Below are positions 3,288 to 33,837 of a DNA stretch of 34,157 nucleotides, piece after piece (positions within the stretch are counted from its first letter, which is position 1; each line of letters opens with the position of its first letter). Under the pieces are notes generated by a model. It was given only the letters and a program-made list of their open reading frames with translations. It was not told the DNA's origin and ran no database searches. Both the position numbers and the translations under genes were made by a program. Location of the stretch: assembly GCA_944376015.1 (NCBI GenBank), contig CALWBH010000074.1, positions 1 through 34,157 on the forward strand, written 5' to 3'. The stretch comes from an uncultured Clostridia bacterium (lineage in GTDB: Bacteria > Bacillota > Clostridia > Christensenellales > Pumilibacteraceae).

Positions 3288-3362
3288 GCGGATGTGGCCT
3301 AACGGTATGGCATCAGCTTCCCAAGCTGAGGGCTGCGGGTTCGAGCCCCGTCATCCGCTCCA
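3288..3362 (+). tRNA. tRNA-Gly (anticodon CCC), CCA encoded
   Basis: Cloverleaf read by eye. Acceptor GCGGATG/CATCCGC, anticodon stem TCAGC/GCTGA with loop TTCCCAA (anticodon CCC), T-arm GCGGG-TTCGAGC-CCCGT, then T-CCA. Confidence 0.9.
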
Positions 3363-12014: not shown

Positions 12015-12029
12015 AGGAGAAACGAAAAG

Positions 12030-14987
12030 ATGGTCGGTAAACGTAAAGTACTTCGAGTGTGGGCAATAATTATCGGCGCGCTTCTCGGATTAATATTCGT
12101 TCTGACGATGATAATGACGCAGAACAAGTTTATCTACAATACGATAAACTCTATGCTCGGCGGCGAACGGCGGTATCTTAAAAGCGGAGATCCCGCGGAG
12201 TATCAGTATTATTCGACTGAATACAAATCTAAAAAAGACGTGCTCAACGCCGCGGCGGAGCTTAACGAGCGTATAAGCGGAGAAGGTATCGTGCTTCTGA
12301 AAAACGAAAACGATACTCTCCCGCTTGACGCGGGATCGAAAATCACCGTGTTCGGCAGAAACTCGGTCGACGCCGTACTCGGAGGGTCCGGTTCCAATCA
12401 GGGCGATACCTCCAATGCCGTTAACGATGTGAATTTGAGTCTGCAAAAAGCGGGTTTCTATTACAACGACAAGATAAGAGAGCATTATAAATCGGTAAAA
12501 CTGACGCGTCCGGAAGTAGCGATGGGTTCGGTATTGACGGGTTACCCGATATGCGAAGCGCCCCTGCCTTATCCGCAGACGGTGACCGACAGCTATGCGT
12601 CGTACGGTGACGCCGCGATAGTGTTCATATCCCGCGAGGGCGGCGAAGGCTTCGACCTTCCGCGCACTATGTTCTGGGACGGCAGCGGTTACAGAAACTG
12701 GAATCCGAAAGAGAAAATAGCGGTCAGCGGAGCGAGAAGCGTCGACGATCATTATCTGCAACTCGACAAGAACGAAACGGACATGATAAATGAAGCGTGC
12801 GCCAACTTCGACGAAGTCATACTCGTCGTAAACAGCGCTTCGCCCGTGGAACTCGGTTTTCTCGACGATCCTACGCATTACGCGTACAGCGACAAGATAA
12901 AAGCCGCTTTGTGGCTCGGACATCCCGGTTCGAACGGTATAGACGCTCTCGGTAAAGTGCTCAGCGGGGAAATAAACCCTTCGGGCAGAACGGTGGACAC
13001 TCTTGTACGCGACTTTAAAAAAGATCCCGCATGGGAGAATTTCGGCAATTATCTCTCCGAAAAAGGCAACCGTTATACTTTCGAAGGCGCGGACAGAAAC
13101 GCGTATTTCATAGAATACCGCGAAGGCATTTATGTGGGCTATCGTTATTGGGAGACCATGGCGGAGGAGCTTAATAGCAAAGACGGTTCGGGCGAGACGT
13201 GGTATAAAGACAACGTCGTTTACCCCTTCGGTTACGGTATGTCTTATTCGGATTTCGAATGGACGGTGAATCCCGTTACCCCCGTCGATACGCCGCTTGC
13301 CGAAGACGGCAGGATAGAAATAGAAGTTACGGTTAAAAACAACGGACCCTATGACGGTAAAGACGTCGTTCAGCTCTACTACACCGCGCCGTACACGCCC
13401 GGCGAAATAGAAAAAGCCCACGTCGTACTCGGCGATTTTGTCAAGACGGACGAACTCGTCGTGGGCGAAAGCAAAACTTACACGCTTTCCGTTGACGTAC
13501 GCGATATGGCTTCCTACGATTATGCGGGCAAAAACGATAACGACTACAAGGGTTACGAGCTTGACGCGGGCATATATACCGTCGGTATAATGAAGAACGC
13601 GCACGAGACGGTACAGACATTCGATTATCTGCTGTCCGACGACGTTTATTACGAGTACTCGGACGTTAACGAAAAGCAGAAGGTGGAAAACCTTTTCGAC
13701 GACGTGAGCGGACATATCGAAGAATATCTTTCCCGTGAGAACGCGTTTGCGAATTACGATTGTATCAAAGGCGCGGACAGTGCGGAAAACCGCGAAGTAA
13801 CCAACGAGTTTATAAAGAGCTGGACTTATGTGCTCGACGATGACGAAAACGATCCGTGGTACGCGAAAACCGCTCCCAATCAGAGTAAGAGCGAATTGTC
13901 TTATAAAAAAGCCGAGATCAAATTACACGACCTTATAGGCAAAGAATACGATAATCCGCTTTGGGACGAACTGCTCGATCAGCTTACCGTCGATCAGATG
14001 ATTCCCGTTATATCGACGGGCAACTACCGTACTTTGCAGATAGAAAATATCGGTAAGCCTATGACGATAGACTCCGACGGTCCCATGGGCTTCGCAAGCT
14101 ATATGGGCGACGGCGCCGTTTACGATACCTATTACTACGCTTCCGAAGCGGTACTCGGCGCGACGTGGAACACGGAGCTTGCGGAAGAATTCGGCGTAAT
14201 GATAGGCAACGAAAGTCTCGTGGGCAATCTGGACGGAGACGGCAGGACGTATTCCGGGTGGTACGCGCCCGCAATGAATTTGCACCGCAGTCAGTTCGGC
14301 GGACGCAACTTCGAGTATTACAGCGAAGACTCTCTTATATCGGGCAAAATGGCGGCTGCCGTCGTTAAAGGCGCGAAGAGCAAAGGCGTTTACACTTATG
14401 CCAAGCATTTCGCGCTCAACGATCAGGAGACTAAGCGCGACGAAACGGGATTGCTTACCTGGGCGAACGAGCAGGCGATGCGCGAGCTTTATTTCCGTCC
14501 TTTCGAAATATGCGTGAAAGAAGGTAAAACCACGGCGATGATGAGTTCGTTCAACCGTATAGGCGTCGAATGGGCGGGCGGAAGCTACAGATTGCTCACT
14601 ACCGTACTGCGCGACGAATGGGGATTCGAAGGCATGGTAATAACCGACTTCAATCTTAAAACGTATATGAACGTCGATCAGATGCTCAGAGCGGGCGGAG
14701 ACATAAATCTGAGTCCCAGCGGCAAACCTTCGTCTACGAAGACGGCAACCGATATTTCCGTGATGAGACGGGCGGTGAAAAACATACTTTTCACGGTCGC
14801 GAACAGTAACGCCATGAACGGCAGCGGTCCCAACGTTGTGTGGGGGTATGCGCTTCCTTATTGGGTGATATGGGTAATATTGGCGAACGTATTCCTGCTT
14901 TTACTCACCGGAACGCTTGTAACATTGGCATTCTTAAGCAATCGCAAATATAAAAAATCAATCGGAAAACAAATAACGGAGGAATAA
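12030..14987 (+). CDS. glycoside hydrolase family 3, domain-permuted paralogue with N- and C-terminal TM segments
   Basis: Same motif order as the preceding gene: IVLLKNENDTLPL, GGEGFDLPRT, INPSGRTVDT, PFGYGMSYSDF, AKHFALNDQE, WGFEGMVITDF. N-terminal signal-anchor and C-terminal helix (PYWVIWVILANVFLLLLTGTLVTLAFL) followed by NRKYKK. RBS AAGGAG. Confidence 0.9.
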   Translation: MVGKRKVLRVWAIIIGALLGLIFVLTMIMTQNKFIYNTINSMLGGERRYLKSGDPAEYQYYSTEYKSKKDVLNAAAELNERISGEGIVLLKNENDTLPLDAGSKITVFGRNSVDAVLGGSGSNQGDTSNAVNDVNLSLQKAGFYYNDKIREHYKSVKLTRPEVAMGSVLTGYPICEAPLPYPQTVTDSYASYGDAAIVFISREGGEGFDLPRTMFWDGSGYRNWNPKEKIAVSGARSVDDHYLQLDKNETDMINEACANFDEVILVVNSASPVELGFLDDPTHYAYSDKIKAALWLGHPGSNGIDALGKVLSGEINPSGRTVDTLVRDFKKDPAWENFGNYLSEKGNRYTFEGADRNAYFIEYREGIYVGYRYWETMAEELNSKDGSGETWYKDNVVYPFGYGMSYSDFEWTVNPVTPVDTPLAEDGRIEIEVTVKNNGPYDGKDVVQLYYTAPYTPGEIEKAHVVLGDFVKTDELVVGESKTYTLSVDVRDMASYDYAGKNDNDYKGYELDAGIYTVGIMKNAHETVQTFDYLLSDDVYYEYSDVNEKQKVENLFDDVSGHIEEYLSRENAFANYDCIKGADSAENREVTNEFIKSWTYVLDDDENDPWYAKTAPNQSKSELSYKKAEIKLHDLIGKEYDNPLWDELLDQLTVDQMIPVISTGNYRTLQIENIGKPMTIDSDGPMGFASYMGDGAVYDTYYYASEAVLGATWNTELAEEFGVMIGNESLVGNLDGDGRTYSGWYAPAMNLHRSQFGGRNFEYYSEDSLISGKMAAAVVKGAKSKGVYTYAKHFALNDQETKRDETGLLTWANEQAMRELYFRPFEICVKEGKTTAMMSSFNRIGVEWAGGSYRLLTTVLRDEWGFEGMVITDFNLKTYMNVDQMLRAGGDINLSPSGKPSSTKTATDISVMRRAVKNILFTVANSNAMNGSGPNVVWGYALPYWVIWVILANVFLLLLTGTLVTLAFLSNRKYKKSIGKQITEE

Positions 14988-21825: not shown

Positions 21826-22746
21826 TCAGTTCAAGAAACCTTTGATTATGGTGTCTTCGGCTTCCTTTTCGCTGAGACCGAGCGTCATCAGTTTTATGAG
21901 CTGATCTCCCGCTATCTTGCCGACGGCGGCTTCGTGGACGAGCGAGGCTTCGGGACTCTTTGCGTCTATCTTGGGCGTGGAGAGTATGCGCGCGTTGTCG
22001 AGCAGTATGCCGTCGCATTCGACGTGTCCGAAACAGCGGTTTTTACCGATTACGTCGGAAATGAACGACTGGTAGGAATTGTCGCGCGCTACGCTGCGGC
22101 TGACGACGTCCACGCTGCTGCCTTCGCCTGCGAGCGTTACTCTGAAACGCGTTATCGCGCGTTCGGTGCCCGAAGTGAGTATTTTTTCCTTGACGATAAG
22201 CCGCGCGTTTTTGTAAAGGGTGGCGGTCATGGCGCGGTCGGTGTCGGTTACGCCGCCGAGCTGAGTCGCTTCCATATACAGCGTCGCACCATTCTTGACA
22301 AACGCGCGGGTGACGGGGTTAAACGCCTTTTTGCCTTCCGCGTTGCCTTCGGCGTAGTGCCGCTCGATGTAGCGCACGCTGCTGCCTTCTTCGAGGTGGA
22401 AGGTATGCACGCCGTCGTGACGGCTTTCGCCGCAGGTGTCGTTGTGTATACCGCAGCCCGCGATTATAGTCACTTCCGCGCCCTTGCCGATATAGAAATC
22501 GTTGTAAACGGTGTCGAGCAAACCGCCTTTGGTGAGAATGACGGGGATATGCACGCTTTTGTTTTTAATGCCCGCCTTGACGAAAATGTCGATGCCTTCC
22601 TTGCCGTCGGTGCGGGGGAGTATTTCCACGTCGCTGTCGGAGGAGCGGGCAAGGCTTTTGCCGTCCTTGCGGATATTGTACGAGCCTTCGGGTATGCCGT
22701 GAAGCTCGGCGATCTTAAATAAAAGTTCGGTGTCGAGTTTATCCAT
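21826..22746 (-). CDS. SufB/SufD-family Fe-S cluster assembly scaffold protein (short form)
   Basis: Beta-helix-type repeats with ...RFRVTLAGEGSSVDVVSRSVA...GHVECDGILLD...ILSTPKIDA....ASLVHEAAVGKIAGDQLIKLMTLGLSEKEAEDTIIKGF, the characteristic SufBD C-terminus. Start at MDKLD (ATG 22746, RBS AAGGAGA), overlapping the upstream gene by 8 nt. Confidence 0.8.
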   Translation of the reverse strand: MDKLDTELLFKIAELHGIPEGSYNIRKDGKSLARSSDSDVEILPRTDGKEGIDIFVKAGIKNKSVHIPVILTKGGLLDTVYNDFYIGKGAEVTIIAGCGIHNDTCGESRHDGVHTFHLEEGSSVRYIERHYAEGNAEGKKAFNPVTRAFVKNGATLYMEATQLGGVTDTDRAMTATLYKNARLIVKEKILTSGTERAITRFRVTLAGEGSSVDVVSRSVARDNSYQSFISDVIGKNRCFGHVECDGILLDNARILSTPKIDAKSPEASLVHEAAVGKIAGDQLIKLMTLGLSEKEAEDTIIKGFLN

Positions 22747-23464
22747 TGTCGGTCTCCTTGATAGCCGAGCAGACGTTGGCACTGCTGCTGATGTGCGGCA
22801 ACATTTTCTCGCGCGCGCCGAAAAGCGGTTTCGATTCTTTGTCGAGCAGTACGACGTAGTCCGCGATGTCGATAATCTTGCTCTGGTGCGAAACGATAAC
22901 GACGGTTTTGCCTTTGAGCCCTTTGAACAAGCCCGTCAGACTGTCGAAGCTCCACAGGTCGATACCCGCTTCGGGTTCGTCGAGCAGGAATACTTCGCCG
23001 CCTTTGGCAAGCGCCATGGCGAGTTCCACGCGTTTAAGCTCGCCGCCCGAAAGACTGTCGCTCATTTCGCGGTCGATATAGTCGCGCGCGCACAGCCCCA
23101 CGACGGACAGCTTGTCGCAAAGCTCGCCGAGCGAGTTTTTCTGCCCGCTGGCAATGTCGAGCAGTCTGCGCACGGTAATGCCCTTGAAACGCACGGGTTG
23201 CTGGAAAGCGGTGGTAAATCCAAGGTTAGCGCGCGCGGTAATGCTTTCGTCGGTAATGTCCGCGCCGTTATAGTAAATCCGCCCGCCCGTAGGCTTTTCG
23301 ATACCCGCGAGCAGTTTTATCAGCGTGCTTTTTCCGCTGCCGTTATGTCCGGTAATGACGGTCACCGCGTGGTCGGGGAGCGTAATGTTTATATCCGAAA
23401 GAATGGTTTTGCGTTTCCCGTCCGCACCGCTTACCGTATAGTTTATGTTTTTCAGTTCGATCAT
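22739..23464 (-). CDS. ABC-type ATPase, SufC-like
   Basis: Walker A GHNGSGKST, signature LSGGELKR, Walker B FLLDEPEAGID, and a SufC-like ARANLGFTTAFQQPV segment. Start at MIELKN (ATG 23464, RBS GGAG). Confidence 0.8.
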   Translation of the reverse strand: MIELKNINYTVSGADGKRKTILSDINITLPDHAVTVITGHNGSGKSTLIKLLAGIEKPTGGRIYYNGADITDESITARANLGFTTAFQQPVRFKGITVRRLLDIASGQKNSLGELCDKLSVVGLCARDYIDREMSDSLSGGELKRVELAMALAKGGEVFLLDEPEAGIDLWSFDSLTGLFKGLKGKTVVIVSHQSKIIDIADYVVLLDKESKPLFGAREKMLPHISSSANVCSAIKETDNG

Positions 23465-23564
23465 GTGCAGTCTCCGTGTATTGTTTCTCGCGCTTTGTCT
23501 TATGCTTAGCCGCGTATGCCGAGCGCCGTGTCTGCCTGCGTAACTCGCGCCGCGGGTATTGTTT

Positions 23565-23593
23565 ATTATATAACCGATAACGATTCTTGTCAA
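23565..23593 (-). promoter_or_regulatory. consensus sigma-70 promoter of the suf pair
   Basis: On the minus strand: TTGACA (23593-23588), 17-nt spacer, TATAAT (23570-23565). Confidence 0.65.
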
Positions 23594-23695: not shown

Positions 23696-23724
23696 TTGTT
23701 TTTGCCGCTTTAATTTGTTATAAT
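23696..23724 (+). promoter_or_regulatory. sigma-70-type promoter (extended -10) of the Type I R-M operon
   Basis: TTGTTT (23696-23701), 17-nt spacer ending TGT, TATAAT (23719-23724). Confidence 0.55.
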
Positions 23725-23777
23725 CGTATTAAGGGCGTTTTATCGTGAAAGCGCAAGCCCTTGTAAGGAGCTTAAAA

Positions 23778-25553
23778 ATGGAAGAACTTATGACGAAATA
23801 TCAGAAACAGACCACGGTCAACGTCAGGGAAAAAGCGGATTTGATCTGGTCGATCGCGGACAAGCTGCGCGGATTGTACAAACCGCACGAGTACGGCAAC
23901 GCGATATTGCCGCTTTGCGTCATAAAAAGATTTTCCGATACGCTCAAACCCACAAGGGAAGCGGTGCTTGCGAAGAACAAAGAGCTTGACGAAAGACAGA
24001 TAAAAGTCAAGGAAGTTTTCCTGCGCCGCGCGGCGAACGCGCTGTTTTACAACATAAGCCCGATGTCGTTCGAAGACCTGCTCAAAGACCCCGACAATGT
24101 GGACGTGAACCTGAAAAAGTATTTGCAGGGTTTTTCGATGAACGTCATCGACATAATAGCGAAATTCGATTTCGAGAACGAGATAGACAAAATGTCGAAC
24201 GGCAACGTGCTGTATGTCGTGCTTCGCGAGTTCTGCTCGCAGAAAGCGTATCTCGGCGCGGATAAAGTGTCGGCGCAGGATATGGGTTATATCTTCGAGG
24301 AGCTCGTCAGGAAATTCTCCGAAAGCTACAACGAAGAAGCGGGGGCGCATTTCACCGCCCGCGACATTATATATCTGATGACCGACCTGCTCATCGGCGA
24401 CGACGCGGAGGAGCTTAAACGCGACGGTATCACGAAAACGGTCTACGACATGACGATGGGCACTTCGCAAATGCTCGCGTGCATGACCGAGCGCCTTGAA
24501 AGCATAGACGAAAACGCCGTCATAACCTGTTACGGTCAGGAATTCAACCCGCAGACTTACGCCATTGCCAAAGCCGATATGCTGATAAAAGGCGGCAGCG
24601 CGGATAATATGAAACTGGGCGACACCCTTTCGGACGACGCGTTCAAAGGCTATCATTTCGATTACATAATTTCCAACCCGCCTTTCGGCATAGAGTGGAA
24701 GCGCGAGCAGAAAGCCGTCGAAAAGGAGCACGAGGAAGGCGAAGCGGGGCGGTTCGGCGCGGGACTTCCGCCTGTGTCCGACGGTCAGATGCTCTTTATG
24801 CTCAACGGCGTGAGCAAACTCAAAGAAAACGGCGGCAGAATGGCTATCATTCAGAACGGCTCTCCGCTGTTCTCGGGCGACGCGGGCAGCGGCCAGAGCA
24901 ATATCCGCGGGTACCTGCTCGAAAACGACTGGCTGGAAGCGATCGTCCAGCTTCCCAACGACTTGTTTTACAATACGGGCATAGCGACTTATGTGTGGCT
25001 CGTGTGCAAGGGCAAAAAGGAAAACAGACAAGGCAAAGTACAGCTTATCGACGCAAGCAAGTGTTTCGAAAAACGCCGTAAAAGCCTGGGCAACAAGCGC
25101 AACGAGCTTTCGGGCGAGTGCGTGCGCCTTATACTCCGCGCCTATCTCGACTTTACCGACGGCGTTTACGAAGAAAACGGAAAGACGGTGGAAAGCAAGG
25201 TTTTTTCAAACGAGTTTTTCAAGTACAGAAAAGTCACCGTCGAACGTCCTTTACTGGGCGATAACGGCGGCATAGTAATGAAAAAAGGCAAGCCCGTGCC
25301 CGATCCCAAACTGCGCGATACCGAAATTATCCCTTGGGGAACGGATACCGACGAATATATGCGCAAAAACGTCCTGCCTTTCGCCCCCGACGCATGGGTC
25401 GACGAATCCAAAACAAAGACGGGTTATGAAATACCGTTCACGCGGCAGTTTTACAAGTACGTCGCGCCCCGTCGCAGCGAGGATATTTTTGCCGAGCTTA
25501 AAACGCTCGAAACGGAAGAAACCGAAATAATGAAGGAGCTTTTCGGGGAATGA
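23778..25553 (+). CDS. hsdM: Type I restriction-modification system, DNA methyltransferase subunit M (N6-adenine)
   Basis: HsdM_N-like N-terminus (DLIWSIADKLRG...), NPPF motif IV (IISNPPFGIEW), and operon context with hsdS and hsdR. Start at ATG 23778, 7 nt after AAGGAG; the track ORF starts at GTG 23745. Confidence 0.9.
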   Translation: MEELMTKYQKQTTVNVREKADLIWSIADKLRGLYKPHEYGNAILPLCVIKRFSDTLKPTREAVLAKNKELDERQIKVKEVFLRRAANALFYNISPMSFEDLLKDPDNVDVNLKKYLQGFSMNVIDIIAKFDFENEIDKMSNGNVLYVVLREFCSQKAYLGADKVSAQDMGYIFEELVRKFSESYNEEAGAHFTARDIIYLMTDLLIGDDAEELKRDGITKTVYDMTMGTSQMLACMTERLESIDENAVITCYGQEFNPQTYAIAKADMLIKGGSADNMKLGDTLSDDAFKGYHFDYIISNPPFGIEWKREQKAVEKEHEEGEAGRFGAGLPPVSDGQMLFMLNGVSKLKENGGRMAIIQNGSPLFSGDAGSGQSNIRGYLLENDWLEAIVQLPNDLFYNTGIATYVWLVCKGKKENRQGKVQLIDASKCFEKRRKSLGNKRNELSGECVRLILRAYLDFTDGVYEENGKTVESKVFSNEFFKYRKVTVERPLLGDNGGIVMKKGKPVPDPKLRDTEIIPWGTDTDEYMRKNVLPFAPDAWVDESKTKTGYEIPFTRQFYKYVAPRRSEDIFAELKTLETEETEIMKELFGE

Positions 25554-25557
25554 ATGA
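25449..25557 (+). repeat. direct repeat copy 1 (authentic hsdM 3' end + RBS + ATGA junction)
   Basis: 109 bp. Positions 25473-25557 are identical to 26635-26719 (85 of 85). The first 24 bp carry 5 mismatches. Confidence 0.95.
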
Positions 25558-26587
25558 GAAGTTGAATAAAGATTCGGAAAAAACAGGGAATATCGTCATT
25601 TACCAATTAGACGACGGCGAAACTCAAATCGACGTTAAATTCGAAGACGAAACCGTGTGGCTTACGCAAGCACAACTTTGCGAACTTTATCAGACGAGCA
25701 AAGCCAATGTAAGCGAACATATAAAAAATATTTTGGACGAAAAGGAGTTGGATGAAAATTCAGTTGTTCGGAAATTCCGAACAACTGCTTCCGACGGCAA
25801 ATCATATTCCGTATTGCATTATAATCTCGATATGATAATTTCTCTCGGATATAGAGTCAAATCGAGAATAGCGACTAATTTTCGCCGTTGGGCAACGGAA
25901 CGATTGAAAGAATATATGATCAAGGGCTTTGCGCTTGACGATAAGCGTTTGAAAGAACTTGGCGGGGGCGATTATTGGAAAGAACTGTTAGATCGTATAC
26001 GCGATATTCGATCTTCGGAAAAAGTAATGTACAGACAGGTTCTTGACTTGTACGCCACAAGCGTTGACTACGACCCAAAAAGTAACGAATCGATTGCTTT
26101 TTTCAAAACGGTTCAGAATAAATTACATTATGCGGCGCACGGTCATACTGCGGCGGAAGTAATATATCAGCGGGCAGATTCCGACGCGCCTTTTATGGGA
26201 TTAACCTCTTTTAGCGGCGATATGCCCGCAATGCAGGACATAACTGTAGCAAAAAATTACCTAACCGAAAAAGAACTGAAAATTTTGAATAATCTTGTAT
26301 CAGGATATTTCGATTTCGCGGAAGTGCAGGCGATTAAACACAACCCTATGTATATGAGCGATTATGTTAAATGTCTTGACAATATTTTGTCATCTACCGG
26401 TGAAAAGGTATTGGAAGGAGCAGGGAACGTAAGTCATATTCAGGCTATAGAAAAAGCCAAAGCCGAGTATAAAAAATATCAGGTAAAAACATTGACGTCG
26501 GTAGAAAAGGAATATTTGCATACTATCAAGGGTTTGGAAAAACAAGCGAAGCTAAAAGCCAAGGACGGCGGGCGAGAAAAGTCGTAA
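25550..26587 (+). CDS. rhuM: RhuM family protein (function unknown; recurrent passenger of Type I R-M loci)
   Basis: IVIYQLDDGETQIDVKFEDETVWLTQAQLCELYQTSKANVSEHIKNI...SVVRKFRTTASDGKSY.V..YNLDMIISLGYRVKS..ATNFRRWATERLKEY matches my memory of the RhuM (Virulence_RhuM) N-terminal signature. The ATGA overlaps the hsdM stop. Confidence 0.8.
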   Translation: MNEKLNKDSEKTGNIVIYQLDDGETQIDVKFEDETVWLTQAQLCELYQTSKANVSEHIKNILDEKELDENSVVRKFRTTASDGKSYSVLHYNLDMIISLGYRVKSRIATNFRRWATERLKEYMIKGFALDDKRLKELGGGDYWKELLDRIRDIRSSEKVMYRQVLDLYATSVDYDPKSNESIAFFKTVQNKLHYAAHGHTAAEVIYQRADSDAPFMGLTSFSGDMPAMQDITVAKNYLTEKELKILNNLVSGYFDFAEVQAIKHNPMYMSDYVKCLDNILSSTGEKVLEGAGNVSHIQAIEKAKAEYKKYQVKTLTSVEKEYLHTIKGLEKQAKLKAKDGGREKS

Positions 26588-26610
26588 TAACGAAATTAAC
26601 GATTCGTCGG

Positions 26611-26715
26611 TTTTACGATTGCGTCGCGCCTCGCCGCAGCGAGGATATTTTTGCCGAGCTTAAAACGCTCGAAACGGAAGAAACCGAAATAATGAAGGAG
26701 CTTTTCGGGGAATGA
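26611..26715 (+). pseudogene. hsdM 3'-terminal remnant (34 codons + stop, no start)
   Basis: In frame it reads FYDCVAPRRSEDIFAELKTLETEETEIMKELFGE*, against authentic FYKYVAPRRSEDIFAELKTLETEETEIMKELFGE*. There is no upstream start, and the frame differs from rhuM. Confidence 0.85.
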
Positions 26716-26719
26716 ATGA
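26611..26719 (+). repeat. direct repeat copy 2 (displaced hsdM 3' end)
   Basis: See copy 1. It includes AAGGAG, the TGA and the overlapping ATG-AAT-GA that starts the next gene. Confidence 0.95.
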
Positions 26720-27701
26720 AGAGAAAAAATGTTTGCCTTTGCATTATAGGGGCGGGTTCAGTGATAGAAACAATATTGATAAACTGAACACAGAAATGCA
26801 AATAACGCAATTTAGTGAAAGGACTCGTGTAATTTTTATTAACAAATTACAGGAGATATTAAATAAAATTACAGATAATGTTTCAATGTATAGTGGAGAA
26901 GATTTATTCAAAAACCTTTTTAATTATATTTGTATTGAAGTATATAATCTTGAAATGGATATAAACTGTAATTTTCCGAAAAAATTTATTTATAAGTATG
27001 ACGAATATGACCCTTATTTGTCCAAAAAAACAGTTTTTTTCAATATTGTTGAAAATACCATAAAAAACGATTCTTATGATAAAGTTTTAACAATTATTGA
27101 AGCAATTTTACTATGGACAAAACAAAATATAATTTATAGAATGCCTCAGATAAAATATCTTGAAAATGGTCAAGTGAAACAAACTGAATTTGATGAGATG
27201 AAAATCTTCAATCAGGTTTTCGAAAAAGAATTTGTCGGGTATCGTTTTATTGGTAATATTATAACACCGATTACAGATGAAATAGAAGTTAGTGAAATTA
27301 AAATCGGATTGGAAGTTGAATTTAATGGTTGTCGGTCGCACATTCAAAAAGCTCTTGGTTTTTTATCCGACAGGGAAAACCCCGATTATAAAAACAGTAT
27401 TAAAGAGAGTATTAGTGCGGTTGAGTCTATTTGTACGATTATTGTAAATGAACCGAAAAAAACTCTTGGTGATGCTATAAAGGCATTTGAAAAAAAAGGT
27501 TTGAAAATTCATCCATCGCTTAAAAAGGCATTTTTGGCTTTATATGGGTATGCCTCGGATCAAGGCGGGATACGTCATTCGGAAAGCTTATTCGAAAGTA
27601 ATGTAACATTTGAAGAAGCAAAATATATGCTCGTCAGTTGTTGTGCTTTTGTGAATTATTTGATTGCGGAATATGGAAAAATTAACGGTGAATCAAAATG
27701 A
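26712..27701 (+). CDS. AbiJ-like abortive-infection-type protein (AbiJ-NTD-like N-terminus + HEPN-like C-terminal domain)
   Basis: N-terminal ..FSERTRV..NKLQEIL resembles AbiJ N-terminal domains. The C-terminal NSIKESISAVESIC..I......TLGDAIKAFEKKG.KIHPSLKKAFLALYGYASDQGGIRH resembles the conserved helical AbiJ/HEPN-type module. This is from memory and no HMM was run. The start is ambiguous: ATG 26712 is coupled through the repeat junction, and ATG 26796 (MQITQFSER) is the alternative. Confidence 0.55.
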   Translation: MNEEKKCLPLHYRGGFSDRNNIDKLNTEMQITQFSERTRVIFINKLQEILNKITDNVSMYSGEDLFKNLFNYICIEVYNLEMDINCNFPKKFIYKYDEYDPYLSKKTVFFNIVENTIKNDSYDKVLTIIEAILLWTKQNIIYRMPQIKYLENGQVKQTEFDEMKIFNQVFEKEFVGYRFIGNIITPITDEIEVSEIKIGLEVEFNGCRSHIQKALGFLSDRENPDYKNSIKESISAVESICTIIVNEPKKTLGDAIKAFEKKGLKIHPSLKKAFLALYGYASDQGGIRHSESLFESNVTFEEAKYMLVSCCAFVNYLIAEYGKINGESK

Positions 27702-28972
27702 AAAATAGCGGTATAGAATGGATAGGCGAAATCCCTGAAAATTGGGAAGTAGTTAAATTAAAAAATATTTCTATAAAAATTAAAAGCGGCGGAACGCCTG
27801 AATCTAGTAATGATAAATATTATAATGGAAATATTCCATGGACAGTTATTGCAGATATGTCTAATGCGGATACGGTTTTATGCACTAAAAAATGTATAAC
27901 AGAAGAAGCTATAAAAAGTAAAAATTTAGAAATATTCAAAAAAGGTGCTTTACTTTATGCTATTTATGCTTCTGTTGGTAAAGTTTCTGAACTTGGTATT
28001 GATTCTACTATAAATCAAGCAATATTAGCGATATGTTTGAACAATAATTTGGCATATAAACAATATGCAAAGTTAATATTGAAATGCTATGAGATTTATG
28101 TTATTGCTGAGTCAAACGGAAACACTCAATTTAATTTAAATGCAGAAAAAGTTGCAAACTTTTCACTTCCTTATCCCCCTATTGACGAGCAACAGAAGAT
28201 AGCGGATTATCTGGACAAGCGGTGCGAGAATATCGACGGGCTTGTTGAGTTGCAAAACCGTATGATCGAAAAATTAAAGGAATACAAACAATCGGTCATT
28301 ACGGAAGCGGTCACAAAAGGTCTTGACCCCGCCGCAAAAATGAAAAACAGCGGCGTGGAATGGATAGGCGAAATCCCCGAAAATTGGGAAGTAAAAAGAT
28401 TAAAGAATATTTGTAAAATTAGAACAGGTAGTACATTATCAAAATCAAGTAATGAAAATTATTATTCTGACGAAGGGTTATTATGGGTAAAGCCTGATAA
28501 TTTAAGTGCATTTAGCTCGATAGAAAAAACTGCAGAATATATAAACGAAAAAGGTCAACAGCAAATAATAGAATTTCCGCCTTATACAGTTTTTGTTTGT
28601 TGTATAGGAACAATAGGAAAGATTGGTTATTCAAAATATCCTGCGTATTGTAATCAACAAATAAACGGGTTGATTTTTTATGAATCCATTTTGAAAAGAT
28701 TTGGACTATATATGATTTTTGCACAAGAAGAGCAACATTGGATTTTTTCTAATGGCAATGTTATTAAAATAATTAATGCGGTAAATCAAGGGAAAATAAA
28801 TGTTCCGATTCCCCCTATTGACGAGCAACAGAAGATAGCGGATTATCTGGACGCGAAGTGCGCGGAGATAGACAGACTTATTGAGATTAAACAAAAGAAA
28901 ATAGAAAAATTACAGGACTATAAAAAATCTTTGATATACGAATGTGTAACGGGTAAGCGGGAAATAAGTTGA
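27698..28972 (+). CDS. hsdS: Type I restriction-modification system specificity subunit S (two TRDs)
   Basis: Duplicated architecture. MKNSG(I/V)EWIGEIPENWEV opens each half, and PIDEQQKIADYLD...I(D/E)..I......IEKL(K/Q).YK(Q/K)S is the central or distal conserved helix. The ATGA overlaps the upstream stop. Confidence 0.92.
   Translation: MKNSGIEWIGEIPENWEVVKLKNISIKIKSGGTPESSNDKYYNGNIPWTVIADMSNADTVLCTKKCITEEAIKSKNLEIFKKGALLYAIYASVGKVSELGIDSTINQAILAICLNNNLAYKQYAKLILKCYEIYVIAESNGNTQFNLNAEKVANFSLPYPPIDEQQKIADYLDKRCENIDGLVELQNRMIEKLKEYKQSVITEAVTKGLDPAAKMKNSGVEWIGEIPENWEVKRLKNICKIRTGSTLSKSSNENYYSDEGLLWVKPDNLSAFSSIEKTAEYINEKGQQQIIEFPPYTVFVCCIGTIGKIGYSKYPAYCNQQINGLIFYESILKRFGLYMIFAQEEQHWIFSNGNVIKIINAVNQGKINVPIPPIDEQQKIADYLDAKCAEIDRLIEIKQKKIEKLQDYKKSLIYECVTGKREIS
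28174..28216 (+). repeat. hsdS conserved-region repeat, copy 1
   Basis: TCCCCCTATTGACGAGCAACAGAAGATAGCGGATTATCTGGAC is identical to 28810-28852 (43 of 43). A second, imperfect pair is 27698-27751 versus 28340-28393 (54 nt, 5 mismatches). Confidence 0.95.
28810..28852 (+). repeat. hsdS conserved-region repeat, copy 2
   Basis: Identical to 28174-28216. Confidence 0.95.
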
Positions 28973-29628
28973 AAAACAGAACTAAAAAAACAATTATAAT
29001 TGCAGTGATACTGCTTTTAGTGACGGCGGGCATAATAACGGGGATATATTTTATACCCGACGAAAAATTGTCCGATATTTTGCTTGCGGTTTTTGCCGCG
29101 GTTTCGGGCGGCGCGCTTACGCTTGCCGGCGTTGCCTGGACGATAAAACGACAGGACGAACTAAAACGGGAAGAAGAACGTAAAAAAGCCAAACCGAATT
29201 TTACGTTCAGAATGGTAAACGATCCGAATTACAATGTAGCCGAAGAACTCGTTTGCTTTGACGATAATTTCGGAAAATTCAAGTGTCGCGCATCTGCTTT
29301 TATAGTAAATTCGGACGGTTCGACATTTTCACTCGAACGCATTTACCATGACAACAAGTGGTATGATTTTGTTTGCAATAAAATCGTATTGCCGAAAGCG
29401 CAGGTTTACATAGACTTCAATTTCAATTATTTTGAACCTTTGATACTTGAAGTAAAAGACGTTTTGGGCAACAAATATCATTATGAGTTAAAAGTTTTAA
29501 TCCTAATGAAAGAAAAAAATTTAGATCCGAAAAATCAAGTAGTAGCGCATACTTTGCGTGAAATTCGCGAACTTACGGCGGAAGAATATGCCGCGCTTAA
29601 AATAGACGACGACAAGGGGGAAGAATGA
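28969..29628 (+). CDS. hypothetical two-TM membrane protein with ~140-aa cytoplasmic beta-rich domain (no family recognised)
   Basis: The only long ORF between hsdS and hsdR. TTG start in a TTGA overlap with the hsdS stop, and its stop is in an ATGA overlap with the hsdR start. TM1 IIIAVILLLVTAGIITGIYFI, TM2 ILLAVFAAVSGGALTLAGVAWTI, followed by KRQDELKREEERKKAK (positive-inside). The start codon is uncertain because no ATG is available before the TM helices. Confidence 0.6.
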   Translation: MKNRTKKTIIIAVILLLVTAGIITGIYFIPDEKLSDILLAVFAAVSGGALTLAGVAWTIKRQDELKREEERKKAKPNFTFRMVNDPNYNVAEELVCFDDNFGKFKCRASAFIVNSDGSTFSLERIYHDNKWYDFVCNKIVLPKAQVYIDFNFNYFEPLILEVKDVLGNKYHYELKVLILMKEKNLDPKNQVVAHTLREIRELTAEEYAALKIDDDKGEE

Positions 29629-32600
29629 TAGACCGTAGCGAAAAACGCTTTGAAAGCGACATAGAAGAATATCTGCTGACCGAAGGCGGGTACACGAAAG
29701 CGGACTGGAAGTATTTTAACAAGCGGTATGCCCTGGATCTGACGCGCATGACGGCGTTTATAAGCAATACGCAGCCGAAAATATGGAAGGTGTTTTCGGA
29801 GCGGTACGGCGCGCAAGCGGAAGAGGCGTTATACAAGCGGTTTCAGTCCGAAGTCGGAGCGCGGGGGCTGATAAGCGTACTCCGCGACGGTTTGCCCGAC
29901 GTGTCTTTGCGCGGGGCGCGGATAAAGCTGGCATACTTCAAGCCTTCGTCCGCGCTGAACGACGAGTTGAACGAGCTTTACGAGAAAAACTTTCTCGATT
30001 GCGGACGGCAGTTTTATTACAGCGAGCAGAACAGGAAGTCGGTGGACATGGTGCTTATGCTCAACGGTATACCCGTTGTCGCGCTCGAACTCAAAAACCA
30101 ACAGACGGGGCAGAGCGTAAACGACGGCGTGCGGCAATGGCAGTACGACCGCGATCCGCGCGAGCTTGTTTTCAGGTTCGACAGCCGCGTGCTGGTATAT
30201 TTCGCGGTTGACCTTTACGAAGTCCGAATGGCTACCGAGCTGAAAGGGGAAAACACGTTTTTCATGCCGTTCAATCAGGGTTCGTGCGGCGCGGGTAACG
30301 TCGGCGGCGCGGGCAACCCGCCGAGCAACGACGGCTATGCCACCGAATATCTGTGGAAAAAATTTCTTTGCCGCGAAGGGTTGCTCGGACTTTTGCAGAA
30401 ATACATAAGCCGTCAGAAAGAAACGCAGTTCTACCTCGAAAATGGCAGAATGAAGGAGCGGACGAGCGAAAAAATTATTTTCCCGCGGTATCATCAATAT
30501 GACGTCGTGGAAAAAGCGATAAGCGACGTGCGCGACAACGGCACGGGCAGAAACTATCTGATACAGCACAGCGCGGGCAGCGGCAAGTCCAACTCCATTG
30601 CGTGGCTGGTGTATCGGCTTTCCACGCTTTACGACCGCGCCGACCGCGGTATATTCGATTCGGTAATAGTCGTTACCGACAGGCGGTTGCTGAATGCGCA
30701 ATTACAGGACACGATACAGAGTTTTACGCACAAGGCGGGGCAGATTCGCACCATAAAGGACAGCGATCCGAGCGGTGATCTCGCTCAGGCTATCGCCGAC
30801 GGCGTGCCTATCATCGTGTGTACGCTTTTCCGCTTCTCGGTCATTTTCAAAGCGGGCAAAGTGCTCAACATGAAGGGCAAAAGATTCGCCGTCGTCATCG
30901 ACGAAGCGCACTCGTCGCAGAACGGCGAAAGCGCGCAAAATCTGAAATCGGTGCTTGCGGACACTACGGGCGCGGAAGAAGAGTACGACGACGATTCGGA
31001 CGGGTTCGATACCCTCGACGAAGAAATGCTCAGACACGGCATGCACGACAATCAGTCGTTTTTCGCATTCACCGCTACGCCCAAACCCAAGACTTTGCAG
31101 AAGTTCGGGCAACGGCAGGCGGACGGGACTTACAGACCTTTCCATGTATACAGCATGAAACAGGCTATCGAAGAGGGGTTTATCCTCGACGTTCTCCGCT
31201 TTTACAGCACGATAAAAAACAGTTTCGAGATCGTCAACAATACTTCGGAAAACCCCGAGCTGCTCGAGCTTCCCACCATTAAGGCGATAAGGGATTTTCA
31301 GCGCGGGTATTCGGGCACTATCGAGATGAAGACCGCCGTTATCGTCGAGCAGTTCAGGCAGATAACGCTGTCTAAAATGATAAGCGGCGGCGTTTCCCAC
31401 GCAAAAGCCATGGTCGTCACGTCGTCGCGCAAAAGCGCCGTGCAGTATTATTTCGCGATACGCAGGTATATCCGCGAGCATGGTTATACCGACGTTATGC
31501 CGCTTGTAGCGTTCTCGGGAAAGGTGAACATCGACGGCGAAGAGTACACCGAACCCGCGCTCAACAAACTGTCGGGGGTCAATATCTCGGAAGAGCAGCT
31601 CAGGTATTACTTTGCGTCAACTATGTTCAATATGCTCATAGTCGCGGACAAGTACCAGACGGGTTTCGACGAACCGCAGCTCCATACCATGTTCGTCGAC
31701 AAAAAGCTGAAAGGCGTCAAAGCCGTGCAGACTTTGTCAAGGCTCAACCGTACTTGCAAAAAGTATGATAAAACCGATACATACGTTCTCGATTTCGTCA
31801 ATACCGCAGAGGATATTCAAAAGGCGTTCGAGCCGTTCTATACGGACACTTTGCTCGAAAGCGAGATAGACCCGAACAAGCTCTACGAGATGAAACGCGA
31901 TATCGAAGGATTCGGGTTTATCGACGCCGAATCCGTGGAGAAATTCGCGGCGGCTTACGACGAGATCAGCCGTACGGCGCAAAAGAAAAGCAGTCAGGGG
32001 CTGCTCACTTCCGTTATAAAACCGACGGTGGAGCGTTATAACGCGGCGGCGACGGATACGCGCGCGTCTTTCCGCAAACTGCTCAAAGGCTTTACTCGGT
32101 TCTACGCTTTCGTAACGCAGATCATACGCATTTTCGATAAACAGTTGCATAAATTCTATTTGTTTTGCGACTGGGCGCTCAGACAGCTGCCGAAAAATCC
32201 CGTGCTTAAATGGGAAATCGATATTTCGGTAATCAACAATACGCTTACCGAAACATTTAACGGCTCCGTCTCTCTCAGCGGCAAGGATAACGTTTTCAAA
32301 CCTACCGACGACCGCGGCGGAAAAGCCGTTAAGCAGACAGAACTGCTCAATGTTATAATCGACCATATCAACGACGCGTACGGCGATAATTTCACGGACG
32401 AGGGCAAAAATATGGTTCGTTCGATCTATGCGCGGATGACGAGCGATCAGAGCGGGAAACTCGTTAAAATGGTGCGCAACAGCGACGAAGAAATGTTCGT
32501 AAAAAGCATTTTTCCCGATTATTTCGCTCTGAAATCCGAAGAATGTTATAATTCGCAATCGGACGCTTATGCGTTGCTATTTCGAGACAGCGATTATTAC

Positions 32601-32654
32601 CGTATCGTAATGGAAGAAATGGCGCGGGCGATATACAGGAAATTCAAAAAATAA
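29625..32654 (+). CDS. hsdR: Type I restriction-modification system endonuclease/translocase subunit R
   Basis: N-terminal PD-(D/E)xK nuclease (VDMVLMLNGIPVVALELKNQ), helicase motif I (QHSAGSGKSNSIAW), DEAH box (VVIDEAHSSQ), motifs III-VI (FAFTATP...QTLSRLNRT). 1009 aa. Confidence 0.92.
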   Translation: MIDRSEKRFESDIEEYLLTEGGYTKADWKYFNKRYALDLTRMTAFISNTQPKIWKVFSERYGAQAEEALYKRFQSEVGARGLISVLRDGLPDVSLRGARIKLAYFKPSSALNDELNELYEKNFLDCGRQFYYSEQNRKSVDMVLMLNGIPVVALELKNQQTGQSVNDGVRQWQYDRDPRELVFRFDSRVLVYFAVDLYEVRMATELKGENTFFMPFNQGSCGAGNVGGAGNPPSNDGYATEYLWKKFLCREGLLGLLQKYISRQKETQFYLENGRMKERTSEKIIFPRYHQYDVVEKAISDVRDNGTGRNYLIQHSAGSGKSNSIAWLVYRLSTLYDRADRGIFDSVIVVTDRRLLNAQLQDTIQSFTHKAGQIRTIKDSDPSGDLAQAIADGVPIIVCTLFRFSVIFKAGKVLNMKGKRFAVVIDEAHSSQNGESAQNLKSVLADTTGAEEEYDDDSDGFDTLDEEMLRHGMHDNQSFFAFTATPKPKTLQKFGQRQADGTYRPFHVYSMKQAIEEGFILDVLRFYSTIKNSFEIVNNTSENPELLELPTIKAIRDFQRGYSGTIEMKTAVIVEQFRQITLSKMISGGVSHAKAMVVTSSRKSAVQYYFAIRRYIREHGYTDVMPLVAFSGKVNIDGEEYTEPALNKLSGVNISEEQLRYYFASTMFNMLIVADKYQTGFDEPQLHTMFVDKKLKGVKAVQTLSRLNRTCKKYDKTDTYVLDFVNTAEDIQKAFEPFYTDTLLESEIDPNKLYEMKRDIEGFGFIDAESVEKFAAAYDEISRTAQKKSSQGLLTSVIKPTVERYNAAATDTRASFRKLLKGFTRFYAFVTQIIRIFDKQLHKFYLFCDWALRQLPKNPVLKWEIDISVINNTLTETFNGSVSLSGKDNVFKPTDDRGGKAVKQTELLNVIIDHINDAYGDNFTDEGKNMVRSIYARMTSDQSGKLVKMVRNSDEEMFVKSIFPDYFALKSEECYNSQSDAYALLFRDSDYYRIVMEEMARAIYRKFKK

Positions 32655-32727
32655 ACTTTTGCGGAAAAAATCCGCGAAAATCGCAGAGATTTATTAACGA
32701 GAACCCCGCGCGATCTGCGGAGTGTGG

Positions 32728-32754
32728 AAAAGCCGCCTTTTAAGACGGCTTTTT
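32728..32754. terminator. hairpin/terminator between convergent hsdR and collagen-like genes
   Basis: AAAAGCCG-(10 nt)-CGGCTTTT followed by T. A/T tracts on both sides make it usable in either direction. Confidence 0.5.
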
Positions 32755-32859
32755 CGTTTGCGCTTTCACGTTTCGCGGTAATGCGAACCGCGCGGAAATA
32801 TTTACGGAATATGCCGCCCGTGGCGATACCTTTCGGAATCAGCGCCGTCAGGGCAACGT

Positions 32860-33837
32860 TTACCTTTGATCGCTCACGGTGGCGTCGCTGTTGCTTGCTT
32901 GAAGCGCGGTAAGCGGGTCGTACGGCGCGCCCGATACCGTTCCCGCAAGCAGCGCGATGTCTACGGCGTTTTCGGGAATACCCCACGAATTGCCCGAAAA
33001 CACGAATACAGCCCGATCCACGACATATCCGCGCGTGTCGTACGCCACGTTATATATAATGTCGCCAGAAGAATCGGGGTTAAGGTATGCGGGTTGACGT
33101 AAAGAATAAAAGATATTGTTGCGCACGAGCAGGTCGGATATGCCGTTCTGCGTAACGAACGCGCGGTTTACCACCCATGTCGAAGAATCTCCCGATTGCG
33201 CGGGTCCGTAAATTTTGCAATTAACGATTTCGTCGCCGTTGCCGCCCACCTGTATGAATTCTACGGGGTAGGGCGCGTCGCTCGTCATCGTCAGTCCGTC
33301 TATCGTCACGTCGTCCGCGCTGAGCAGAAACGGCACGATCGGCGCTTCGAGCAGTATTTCCGCGCCTGCATTGCCCTTTATCGTCAGCCCGGGTATGTTT
33401 ATCCCGAGCTGCTGCGTCACAGGGTATGTGCCGCTCAGCACGTTTATCACACCGTTGGGAAGAGATGCGTCCAGCGCCTCCCTCAGGGTCTGAAACGGTG
33501 CCAACCGACTTCCGTCGCCGCCCGCCGCCGCGTCCGCCTGTACGTACAGATCGAACGGATCGGTCTGGACGGGACCCGTCGCGCCCGTCGGACCTGTGGG
33601 ACCTGTAGCGCCGTTACTTCCGTTCGCGCCTGTCGCTCCCGTCGCTCCCGTCGGACCGGTCGGACCCGTGCCGCCGCCCGAGCTTGACGGACCCGTCGGA
33701 CCCATGGGACCTGTTGCGCCCGTCGGACCGGGCGGACCCGTAGGACCGGGCGGACCGGGAATGCCCGCGGGACCCGTTACAAAACATAAATATCGGCAAG
33801 GCGGACAACCGCCGCACCCGTTGTTATCGAAAAACAT
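32860..33837 (-). CDS. collagen-like triple-helix-repeat protein with C-terminal right-handed beta-helix (DUF1565/pectin-lyase-fold-like) domain
   Basis: Cys-rich N-terminus (5 Cys in the first 18 aa), 23 G-X-Y triplets, then [31 protein letters not shown]...GLTIKG, a DUF1565-type beta-helix start. RBS GGAGGG lies 6 nt before the ATG. Confidence 0.85.
33571..33774 (-). repeat. GXY (mostly GPT/GAT) collagen-like triplet tract
   Basis: [30 protein letters not shown] [SSG] [36 protein letters not shown]. One triplet lacks Gly at position 1. The DNA is a degenerate 9-bp repeat (GGACCCGTCGG-like on the plus strand). Confidence 0.9.

Follow-up and report, generated by a model that had tools for sequence, protein, structure and literature searches.

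A Clostridia Type I restriction-modification operon as a probable docking platform for independent defence cassettes

When genes with no restriction or modification function lie inside a Type I restriction-modification (R-M) operon, are they subunits of one composite machine or separate cassettes carried by it? The question is raised by an operon at ~23696–32759, + strand, in contig CALWBH010000074.1 (GCA_944376015.1) of an uncultured Clostridia bacterium (Pumilibacteraceae); the whole stretch of DNA analyzed, 34,157 nt, is referred to below as the window. An earlier note on this DNA had described the operon as one composite unit, with its passengers stoichiometrically tied to the R-M subunits. 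By open reading frame (ORF) listing and profile searches (Pfam, PADLOC, NCBIfam, PHROGs), we identified six genes, all on the + strand, in the following order:

23778–25553, + strand: hsdM, Type I methyltransferase subunit (Pfam N6_Mtase 3.1e-54, HsdM_N 3e-22; PADLOC MTase_I 4e-231)
25550–26587, + strand: rhuM, an inserted cassette, PADLOC candidate PDC-S05 (Pfam Virulence_RhuM 2.4e-107; PDC-S05 6.6e-163)
26712–27701, + strand: AbiJ_NTD4/HEPN-like gene, PADLOC candidate PDC-S32 (Pfam AbiJ_NTD4 2e-13; PDC-S32 2.7e-82)
27698–28972, + strand: hsdS, specificity subunit (Pfam Methylase_S in two stretches; PADLOC Specificity_I 1e-126)
28969–29628, + strand: gene with a TTG start for a 219-aa protein with two transmembrane (TM) helices and a C-terminal beta-sandwich (the 2-TM protein), of an uncatalogued family (ORF and AlphaFold2)
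29625–32654, + strand: hsdR, restriction/translocase subunit (Pfam HSDR_N at 1e-10, ResIII, SWI2_SNF2, T1R_D3-like; TIGR00348 2e-56)

Gene order and identities agreed with the earlier note.

Judged from its sequence, this is a chromosomal Type I R-M operon (hsdM-hsdS-hsdR) that carries three same-strand, tightly coupled non-R-M genes. We consider it probable that the two junctions between its subunit genes are docking slots for autonomous defence cassettes, three of which are present here. Comparison with related loci argues against the passengers being subunits of one machine and disfavours an obligate composite system. Loci L001/L002 and L172 have the chromosomal site of the window, downstream of divergent Suf genes. 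The same six genes are found in L001/L002, where HsdM is 98%, RhuM 97%, and HsdR 92% identical to the window proteins; identity is lower in the AbiJ-like protein (57%), HsdS (71%), and the 2-TM protein (82%). Nucleotide identity between the window and L001 breaks exactly over the AbiJ N-terminal domain (26729–27207) and the first target-recognition domain of hsdS (TRD1, 27765–28177). In L172, rhuM is absent and hsdM overlaps the AbiJ-like gene (89% amino acid identity) directly through ATGA; its hsdS has different target-recognition domains and is followed by an unrelated gene.

More distant loci show the same independence of parts. One identical AbiJ-like protein (P0123) is shared by four loci that differ in hsdS and, between them, show the hsdS-hsdR slot in three states; DUF2971 fills that slot beside another AbiJ-like relative, and AbiJ-bearing loci carry other cargo, or none, before hsdR. 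The identity of 2-TM proteins does not follow that of the adjacent HsdR (Spearman −0.09; 91 pairs, 14 non-redundant loci): near-identical HsdR proteins carry 2-TM partners that are only 30–48% identical, as in L132 and L136, where HsdR is 98% and the 2-TM protein only 48% identical. Members of every passenger family also occur outside hsd operons. The idea of one stoichiometrically tied unit was therefore not borne out, given the gene content of L172, the three slot states beside P0123, and the uncorrelated 2-TM and HsdR identities.

Two observations concern the same junctions. The last 161 nt of hsdS (28810–28970) are 100% identical to L172:5899–6059, though the two loci share only 91.5% identity in hsdM and have unrelated genes after hsdS; the pattern resembles a recent recombination breakpoint placed precisely where hsdS stops and the passenger starts. 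A second uncatalogued family of ~185 aa occupies the hsdS-hsdR slot of L172 (6061–6390) and of loci carrying P0123 (L173:9155–9712, L174:9224–9781). Its N-terminal motif is CYM[AS]ALTxAxTLPDICGKAxYP; Pfam gave no match, even with the limit raised to E ≤ 10, and the family is another embedded candidate.

Occupancy of the two slots was surveyed in 80 genome loci whose HsdR is 45–52% identical to that of the window. The order hsdM-hsdS-hsdR was constant throughout. More than 300 nt separated the hsdS and hsdR matches in 39 of 69 loci, an upper bound given that ~11 of these gaps have no + strand ORF of at least 80 aa; the corresponding count between hsdM and hsdS was 19 of 64. Slot cargo included Fic/DOC (with or without Bro-N), ApeA-HEPN, GmrSD, RhuM, YhcG/DUF1016, AbiH, Schlafen/AlbA_2, DUF5677, DUF4411, and others; neither the 2-TM nor the AbiJ-like family was found in these 80 loci. 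Both recur in metagenomes, where the order hsdM, AbiJ-like, hsdS, 2-TM-family, hsdR is seen in many loci of a sample chosen for the 2-TM gene. L132 repeats the full six-gene order at an HsdR identity of only 45% and a RhuM identity of 80%. A strict co-occurrence of the AbiJ-like and 2-TM genes was considered and rejected, since roughly half of the 2-TM clusters with a visible hsdM-hsdS slot have an AbiJ-like gene.

The R-M core has the domains of a Type I system. HsdM combines an N6-adenine methyltransferase domain with an HsdM N-terminal domain, as expected of a Type I enzyme. Its longest ORF runs from GTG 23745 to 25553; the start is likely ATG 23778, behind an AAGGAG Shine-Dalgarno sequence, and GTG 23745 is less likely. 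Gene calls of 591 aa for HsdM in L001 and L172 fit the ATG 23778 start. HsdS has the two target-recognition domains of a Type I specificity subunit, parted by repeats; the gene contains internal direct repeats at 27695–27776/28337–28418 and 28167–28293/28803–28929. HsdR has an N-terminal nuclease domain and an SF2 translocase; its TIGR00348 match (2e-56) lies under the NCBI cut-off of 284 bits, so it is a divergent member.

The entry of one cassette can be read from a duplication. RhuM is a full-length family member (Virulence_RhuM 358 bits against a cut-off of 33.7, profile positions 1–248 of 252; PDC-S05 6.6e-163, positions 4–327 of 330), for which phmmer gave no match among PDB sequences. 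The gene is bounded by a direct repeat:

25443–25557, + strand: copy 1, the true hsdM 3′ end with its Shine-Dalgarno sequence and ATGA junction (repeat search, five-way alignment)
26605–26719, + strand: copy 2, a non-coding hsdM 3′ remnant (repeat search, alignment)

The copies are 115 nt long and 94% identical, the last ~85 nt of copy 2 being identical to copy 1. Copy 2 lies within the 124-nt gap between rhuM and the AbiJ-like gene and supplies the latter with its Shine-Dalgarno sequence and ATGA start context; the sole start codon in the frame of the hsdM remnant, ATG 26692, falls within the Shine-Dalgarno region. L172 has no counterpart of positions 25562–26603 of the window; what it lacks is rhuM with 17 further nt, precisely the segment that the 115-nt repeat delimits. 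L001 has the same repeat boundary (TTTTAC), hence the insertion of rhuM predates the split of the window and L001. We infer that copy 2 is a scar of this insertion, which would fit a single crossover (Campbell-type) with a circular or donor fragment that bore an hsdM 3′ end.

The GC content of third codon positions is 0.68 in hsdM and 0.67 in hsdR, compared with 0.41 in rhuM, 0.24 in the AbiJ-like gene, 0.27 in hsdS, and 0.40 in the 2-TM gene; the central cargo region is compositionally foreign relative to hsdM and hsdR. Foreign composition and the fast turnover between close relatives would also be expected if the passengers were mere hitch-hikers, selfish or neutral genes with no defence role in this host, held in a recombination-tolerant "genomic sink" of the sort discussed by Payne et al. 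(bioRxiv 10.1101/2024.01.29.577857). We regard this as very improbable. The three ORFs are intact and have kept their Shine-Dalgarno sequences or overlaps, their families are strongly enriched beside defence genes, and the 2-TM and AbiJ-like genes hold the same slots across deep divergence. One RhuM member, moreover, has measured anti-phage activity: a single PDC-S05 gene expressed alone in Escherichia coli B lowered the efficiency of plating ~1000-fold for T7 and T5 and ~10-fold for T4 (PMC12881386).

The second passenger resembles AbiJ, which in its original lactococcal form is an abortive-infection system of a single gene. In the window protein, the AbiJ_NTD4 domain scores 51.4 bits against a cut-off of 34. 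There are 5381 database homologues, many of them with a precomputed Abi_C match that is faint wherever its strength is given. When the C-terminal domain of an AlphaFold2 model was compared with the PDB by Foldseek, the best matches were the HEPN folds 2hsb, 1ufb, and 1wol, at weak E-values (0.07–0.8); the match to 2hsb had a probability of 1.00 and a target-normalised TM-score of 0.62, and the predicted local distance difference test (pLDDT) score of this domain was 46–80. All 40 homologues compared keep the GG[IV]-R288-H289 dyad unchanged. We call the protein HEPN-like, on mixed evidence for its C-terminal domain. No nucleotide similarity between the window and L001, whose operons are otherwise 90–95% identical, was detected in the N-terminal half (26729–27207), compared with 95% identity over the C-terminal HEPN-like half (27208–27764), as if a presumed sensor domain had been replaced as a unit or had diverged very fast.

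Could this gene be a guard in the manner of PrrC? On such a model the passenger or passengers, most plausibly the AbiJ_NTD4/HEPN-like protein, would be bound and held inactive by the Hsd complex and would fire when phage anti-restriction disables the enzyme; PrrC-EcoprrI is the precedent (PMC3710099), and the earlier note had invoked it as an analogy. The AbiJ-like gene overlaps hsdM or hsdS by 4–8 nt in all close relatives examined, and the sharp difference of its N-terminal domain between near-identical operons is how a sensor in an arms race would look. As a mechanism, the analogy does not hold up well, and we consider a guard unlikely here. The ABC-ATPase domain of PrrC is present in no passenger (Pfam, PADLOC, NCBIfam), and hsdS has been swapped beside an unchanged AbiJ-like protein, which speaks against a tight, co-adapted HsdS interface. 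More distant AbiJ_NTD4 homologues stand alone on plasmids, without hsd genes, 2-TM homologues likewise occur without hsd genes, and one RhuM member defends alone (PMC12881386). The lactococcal AbiJ, too, is a single-gene system.

The third passenger proved to be the least familiar. Its start is a TTG that overlaps hsdS; the database gene call (P0001, 207 aa) uses a GTG 12 codons downstream, and the overlapping TTG/ATG start is conserved in relatives. No Pfam family matched at E ≤ 0.01, and a limit of 10 added only a sub-threshold Claudin_2 (E = 0.037, 14.2 against 29.1 bits). PADLOC 2.0 returned only HORMA at E = 0.0086, with no stretch passing alone, and NCBIfam and PHROGs gave no match. An AlphaFold2 model (pLDDT 78) has two N-terminal TM helices, a charged helical stalk, and an all-beta domain at residues 78–201; topology prediction, with a positively charged N terminus, places the beta domain in the cytoplasm. 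Foldseek against the PDB found only weak beta-sandwich look-alikes (TRAP-beta, actinoporins, PCuAC; query-normalised TM-scores 0.24–0.28). The most conserved stretch is the end of TM2, GGxLTLxGVAWTIK, followed by AKPxF. Longer relatives have further TM helices at the N terminus; the longest were scanned with Pfam for domain fusions, and nothing above noise-level matches to membrane proteins came up.

The earlier note had called this protein an orphan. A k-mer-indexed search, which gave 9 relatives, seemed to agree, and was overturned by a profile search and a metagenome scan. Among 1.84 billion representatives, the family profile matched 923 clusters (50% identity) at E ≤ 1e-3, 524 at ≤ 1e-10, and 105 at ≤ 1e-30; the protein is rare, not an orphan. 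We also looked with the family hidden Markov model for distant relatives in the ~500–640-nt hsdS-hsdR gaps of several Clostridia genome loci and found none; those gaps have no + strand ORF of at least 80 aa and so probably reflect incomplete hsdS matches. A tblastn search of plasmids, phages, and IMG/VR viral contigs with the 2-TM protein gave no match.

Genomic context was assessed in 92 instances from context look-ups and the metagenome scan, which fall into 40 clusters at ≥80% identity, one locus per cluster being counted. The immediate downstream neighbour of the 2-TM gene was HsdR in 16 of 34 non-redundant contexts, and the immediate upstream neighbour HsdS in 12 of 33. Starts and stops mostly overlap or abut the neighbouring genes, with overlaps of −4 to −17 nt where the gene lies directly upstream of hsdR. 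Other neighbours, for the most part restriction or defence genes, were an HsdR of another family placed upstream (T1RH-like_C, L094 group), ResIII proteins of 866–870 aa (L104, L169), DNA methylases, T5orf172, KAP NTPase, Ser/Thr kinase, TIR, HicB, and GmrSD. We conclude that the 2-TM proteins, whose gene directly precedes that of the restriction subunit in many bacteria unrelated to one another, are a defence-associated family absent from current catalogues. Tentatively, they may be founding members of an undescribed family of anti-phage proteins that are anchored in the membrane and whose preferred position is the hsdS-hsdR slot, acting either as a stand-alone, membrane-disrupting abortive effector or as a membrane partner of restriction subunits. 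The conserved TM2 motif and the very fast turnover beside near-identical HsdR would fit direct engagement with phage factors.

Family members also occur in the following two settings. A compact defence island without hsd genes (L004:967–9815; also L005 and L006) includes a 337-aa 2-TM-family protein, in the order HTH, 2-TM-family, GmrSD+DUF4357, HicB, two MethyltransfD12 (Dam-like), an unknown 304-aa protein, and a second GmrSD. In L010 (3026–5457), an hsd operon of this lineage carries a 2-TM homologue and two extra unknown genes, of 288 aa (hsdM-hsdS) and 106 aa (after hsdS); two ORFs (549 + 492 aa) there make up hsdR, a split suggestive of frameshift or decay.

Position beside hsdR invites a more specific explanation, namely that the 2-TM protein is an accessory of HsdR, a membrane tether that places it at the site of DNA entry or a regulator of its activity. 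The count of 16 of 34 contexts directly upstream of hsdR is in its favour, as are the T1RH-like_C HsdR and ResIII neighbours, the predicted cytoplasmic position of the beta-sandwich, and the absence of members from the phages, viral contigs, and plasmids searched. We nevertheless think such a role quite unlikely: the sequence of the 2-TM protein does not track that of the adjacent HsdR, most members of this HsdR family do without it (0 of 80 genome loci have it), L172 has a different gene in the slot, and in some loci the 2-TM gene adjoins GmrSD, KAP NTPase, a kinase, or TIR and no restriction subunit of helicase type is present.

Several observations weigh against our preferred reading of docking slots filled with autonomous defence cassettes. 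The 2-TM-positive loci were selected for having the gene, and this ascertainment bias means that no clade-wide frequency follows from the context counts. The 2-TM family adjoins some restriction subunit in ~20 of 34 contexts, in varied relative positions, and this adjacency could signify more than occupancy of a slot. AbiJ-like proteins of at least 48% identity were seen only in the hsdM-hsdS slot, tightly coupled to hsdM (about six contexts, several identity levels), and this confinement would also fit a specific tie to HsdM/S. Finally, the RNase activity of the AbiJ-like protein is not assured: Abi_C scores 14.7 bits on the window protein, under the cut-off of 24, and the canonical HEPN RNase motif Rx4-6H occurs nowhere in it.

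We next consider how the six genes are expressed. The putative ends of the transcript are:

23696–23724, + strand: putative sigma-70 promoter of the operon (TTGTTT, 17 nt, extended −10 TGtTATAAT; read from sequence)
32730–32759, + strand: terminator-like hairpin, probable transcript end by inference (AAGCCG, 10-nt loop, CGGCTT, then a T-tract; read from sequence)

The promoter proposed in the earlier note is present. L001 and L172 have kept it, the 5′ untranslated region (UTR), the Shine-Dalgarno sequence, and ATG 23778 almost without change, while the adjacent upstream spacer has diverged. Consensus scans over the operon came close to chance, with 23 promoter-like matches (16.8 ± 4.6 expected) and 19 terminator-like matches (15.0 ± 3.9 expected). 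The scans omitted the promoter at 23696–23724 because its −35 element matches at only 3 of 6 positions, and the hairpin at 32730–32759 because its loop exceeds the 8-nt limit of the scan. The sole notable + strand terminator-like site is a weak hairpin at 26629–26644, within the hsdM remnant, so that the claim of no internal terminator is nearly, if not entirely, true; between rhuM and the AbiJ-like gene, the intergenic RNA has no folding advantage over shuffled sequence (z = −0.02). At four junctions, start and stop overlap by 4 nt (ATGA at 25550, 27698, and 29625; TTGA at 28969; read from sequence), and the fifth is the ATGA at 26712 within the 115-nt direct repeat, exactly as had been stated, including the reuse of the duplicated hsdM ribosome-binding site. 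Such overlaps are ordinary in tight operons and indicate co-translation, not stoichiometry. One transcript from the conserved promoter, with translational coupling of all six genes, is plausible.

The promoter region has two further features. An inverted repeat in the 5′ UTR of hsdM (23733–23775; AAGGGC ... GCCCTT) ends just before the AAGGAG Shine-Dalgarno sequence, and the sole substitution among relatives falls in its loop; it could be a regulatory hairpin. On the − strand, a perfect consensus sigma-70 promoter (23565–23593; TTGACA, 17 nt, TATAAT; 12/12) faces away from the hsd operon, toward genes for a SufC-like ABC ATPase (22739–23593) and SufB/D (21826–22782), both on the − strand. This promoter and that of the hsd operon together make up a divergent promoter region.

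With docking slots as the probable arrangement, the following mode of action can be proposed. The R-M enzyme would restrict unmodified DNA, and the three passengers would serve as autonomous second-line modules made from the same transcript. RhuM (PDC-S05) would be a toxin or protein-modifying effector, the AbiJ-like protein (PDC-S32) a presumed RNA-targeting abortive-infection protein with its N-terminal domain as likely sensor, and the 2-TM protein a membrane-acting abortive effector or sensor; the presumed targets, protein, RNA, and membrane, follow from the families and architecture of the passengers. With six genes on one transcript and coupled translation, the cell would thereby deploy restriction and up to three back-up layers. 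Cargo would be gained, lost, and exchanged by recombination via the conserved hsdM 3′ end, the hsdS conserved regions, and the hsdR 5′ end, which would act as homology arms. We infer a defence role for each passenger in this host from sequence data. The earlier proposal of layered R-M plus abortive infection is reasonable, and two of the three passengers belong to defence-associated families, with the amendment that the passengers behave as independent cassettes.

How new is such an operon? Defence genes in Type I R-M operons are known and common. Anantharaman et al. (2013) described HEPN proteins embedded in R-M operons and proposed that R-M, HEPN, and a DOC/RhuM-like toxin form a multilevel defence (PMC3710099). 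As in the window, their neighbourhoods join an R-M operon with a HEPN-family and a RhuM-like protein, and attack on DNA, RNA, and protein in turn was proposed; there, however, RhuM is paired with a PrrC-like ABC-HEPN protein, whereas here its partner is an AbiJ_NTD4 protein without the ATPase, and a membrane protein is added. EcoprrI-PrrC, an anticodon nuclease in a Type IC hsd operon and the textbook case of R-M with an abortive back-up, likewise has a HEPN-class gene within an hsd operon; it differs from the window in that none of our passengers has an ABC-ATPase and relatives of all three occur outside hsd operons.

The survey of Payne et al. (2024) covered embedded genes in four kinds of host locus (Type I R-M, BREX, DISARM, and Hma), found 96.7% of them co-oriented with the host system, and proposed 145 candidates (bioRxiv 10.1101/2024.01.29.577857). 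The PDC-S05 and PDC-S32 models derive from that work, where RhuM is FAM_00003 in the supplementary table; when the supplement was searched for PDC-S32 statistics, RhuM entries only were found. The window resembles their loci in its same-strand genes nested among hsd, two of which match candidate models, and in the diverse slot cargo of its relatives. It differs in its 2-TM passenger, which matches no PADLOC 2.0 model, and goes beyond the survey in providing direct evidence of cassette exchange at one chromosomal site, with a duplication scar. The earlier view that this is not a described system could not be sustained: R-M with HEPN and RhuM/DOC was proposed in 2013, embedding was surveyed in 2024, and the six-gene order recurs in L001/L002 and L132. 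The three-passenger combination is not unique to the window, and its logic has been described previously; if the operon were claimed as a new composite defence system, specialists would find nothing surprising in it.

The new element is the 2-TM/beta-sandwich family, a candidate defence family. CBASS Cap15 is a small membrane abortive-infection effector with two TM helices and a beta-rich domain. The 219-aa 2-TM protein is like it in design only, its two TM helices being N-terminal and its soluble, beta-rich part ~125 aa long; it has no sequence match (PADLOC scan), no structural match in the PDB, and no cyclase or other signal generator nearby. The family is a practical lead: it is missing from catalogues, was found by the same embedding logic that has yielded validated systems, and has in the 219-aa protein a member of convenient size for experiments.

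The operon is a clean natural example of Type I R-M loci as docking platforms for other defence genes. At one site in three related strains, rhuM has been gained or lost, the gene before hsdR replaced, and the hsdS target-recognition domains and the AbiJ N-terminal domain swapped; the 115-nt duplication records the entry of one cassette. The case informs how defence repertoires are reshuffled without disrupting the essential methylase/restriction pair.

The operon does not lie within a defence island, its flanking genes being Suf, LDH, ADH, GH3, and two-component genes. Rfam matches the window just once, at a tRNA gene (3288–3359, + strand; RF00005, 66.5 bits) that is not adjacent to the hsd operon. 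Directly downstream of the operon, on the − strand (32860–33837), lies a gene for a collagen-like triple-helix repeat protein (Pfam Collagen; GPT/GAT repeats); it is only ~81% identical in nucleotide sequence to its L001 counterpart, and its repeat region aligns in several registers. At 7935–14987, + strand, two adjacent genes encode very large GH3 proteins (1359 and 985 aa) in which the GH3 C-terminal domain comes before the N-terminal domain; the pair carries Fn3-like and He_PIG Ig domains and is preceded by a 670-aa Big_2/InlB-repeat protein.

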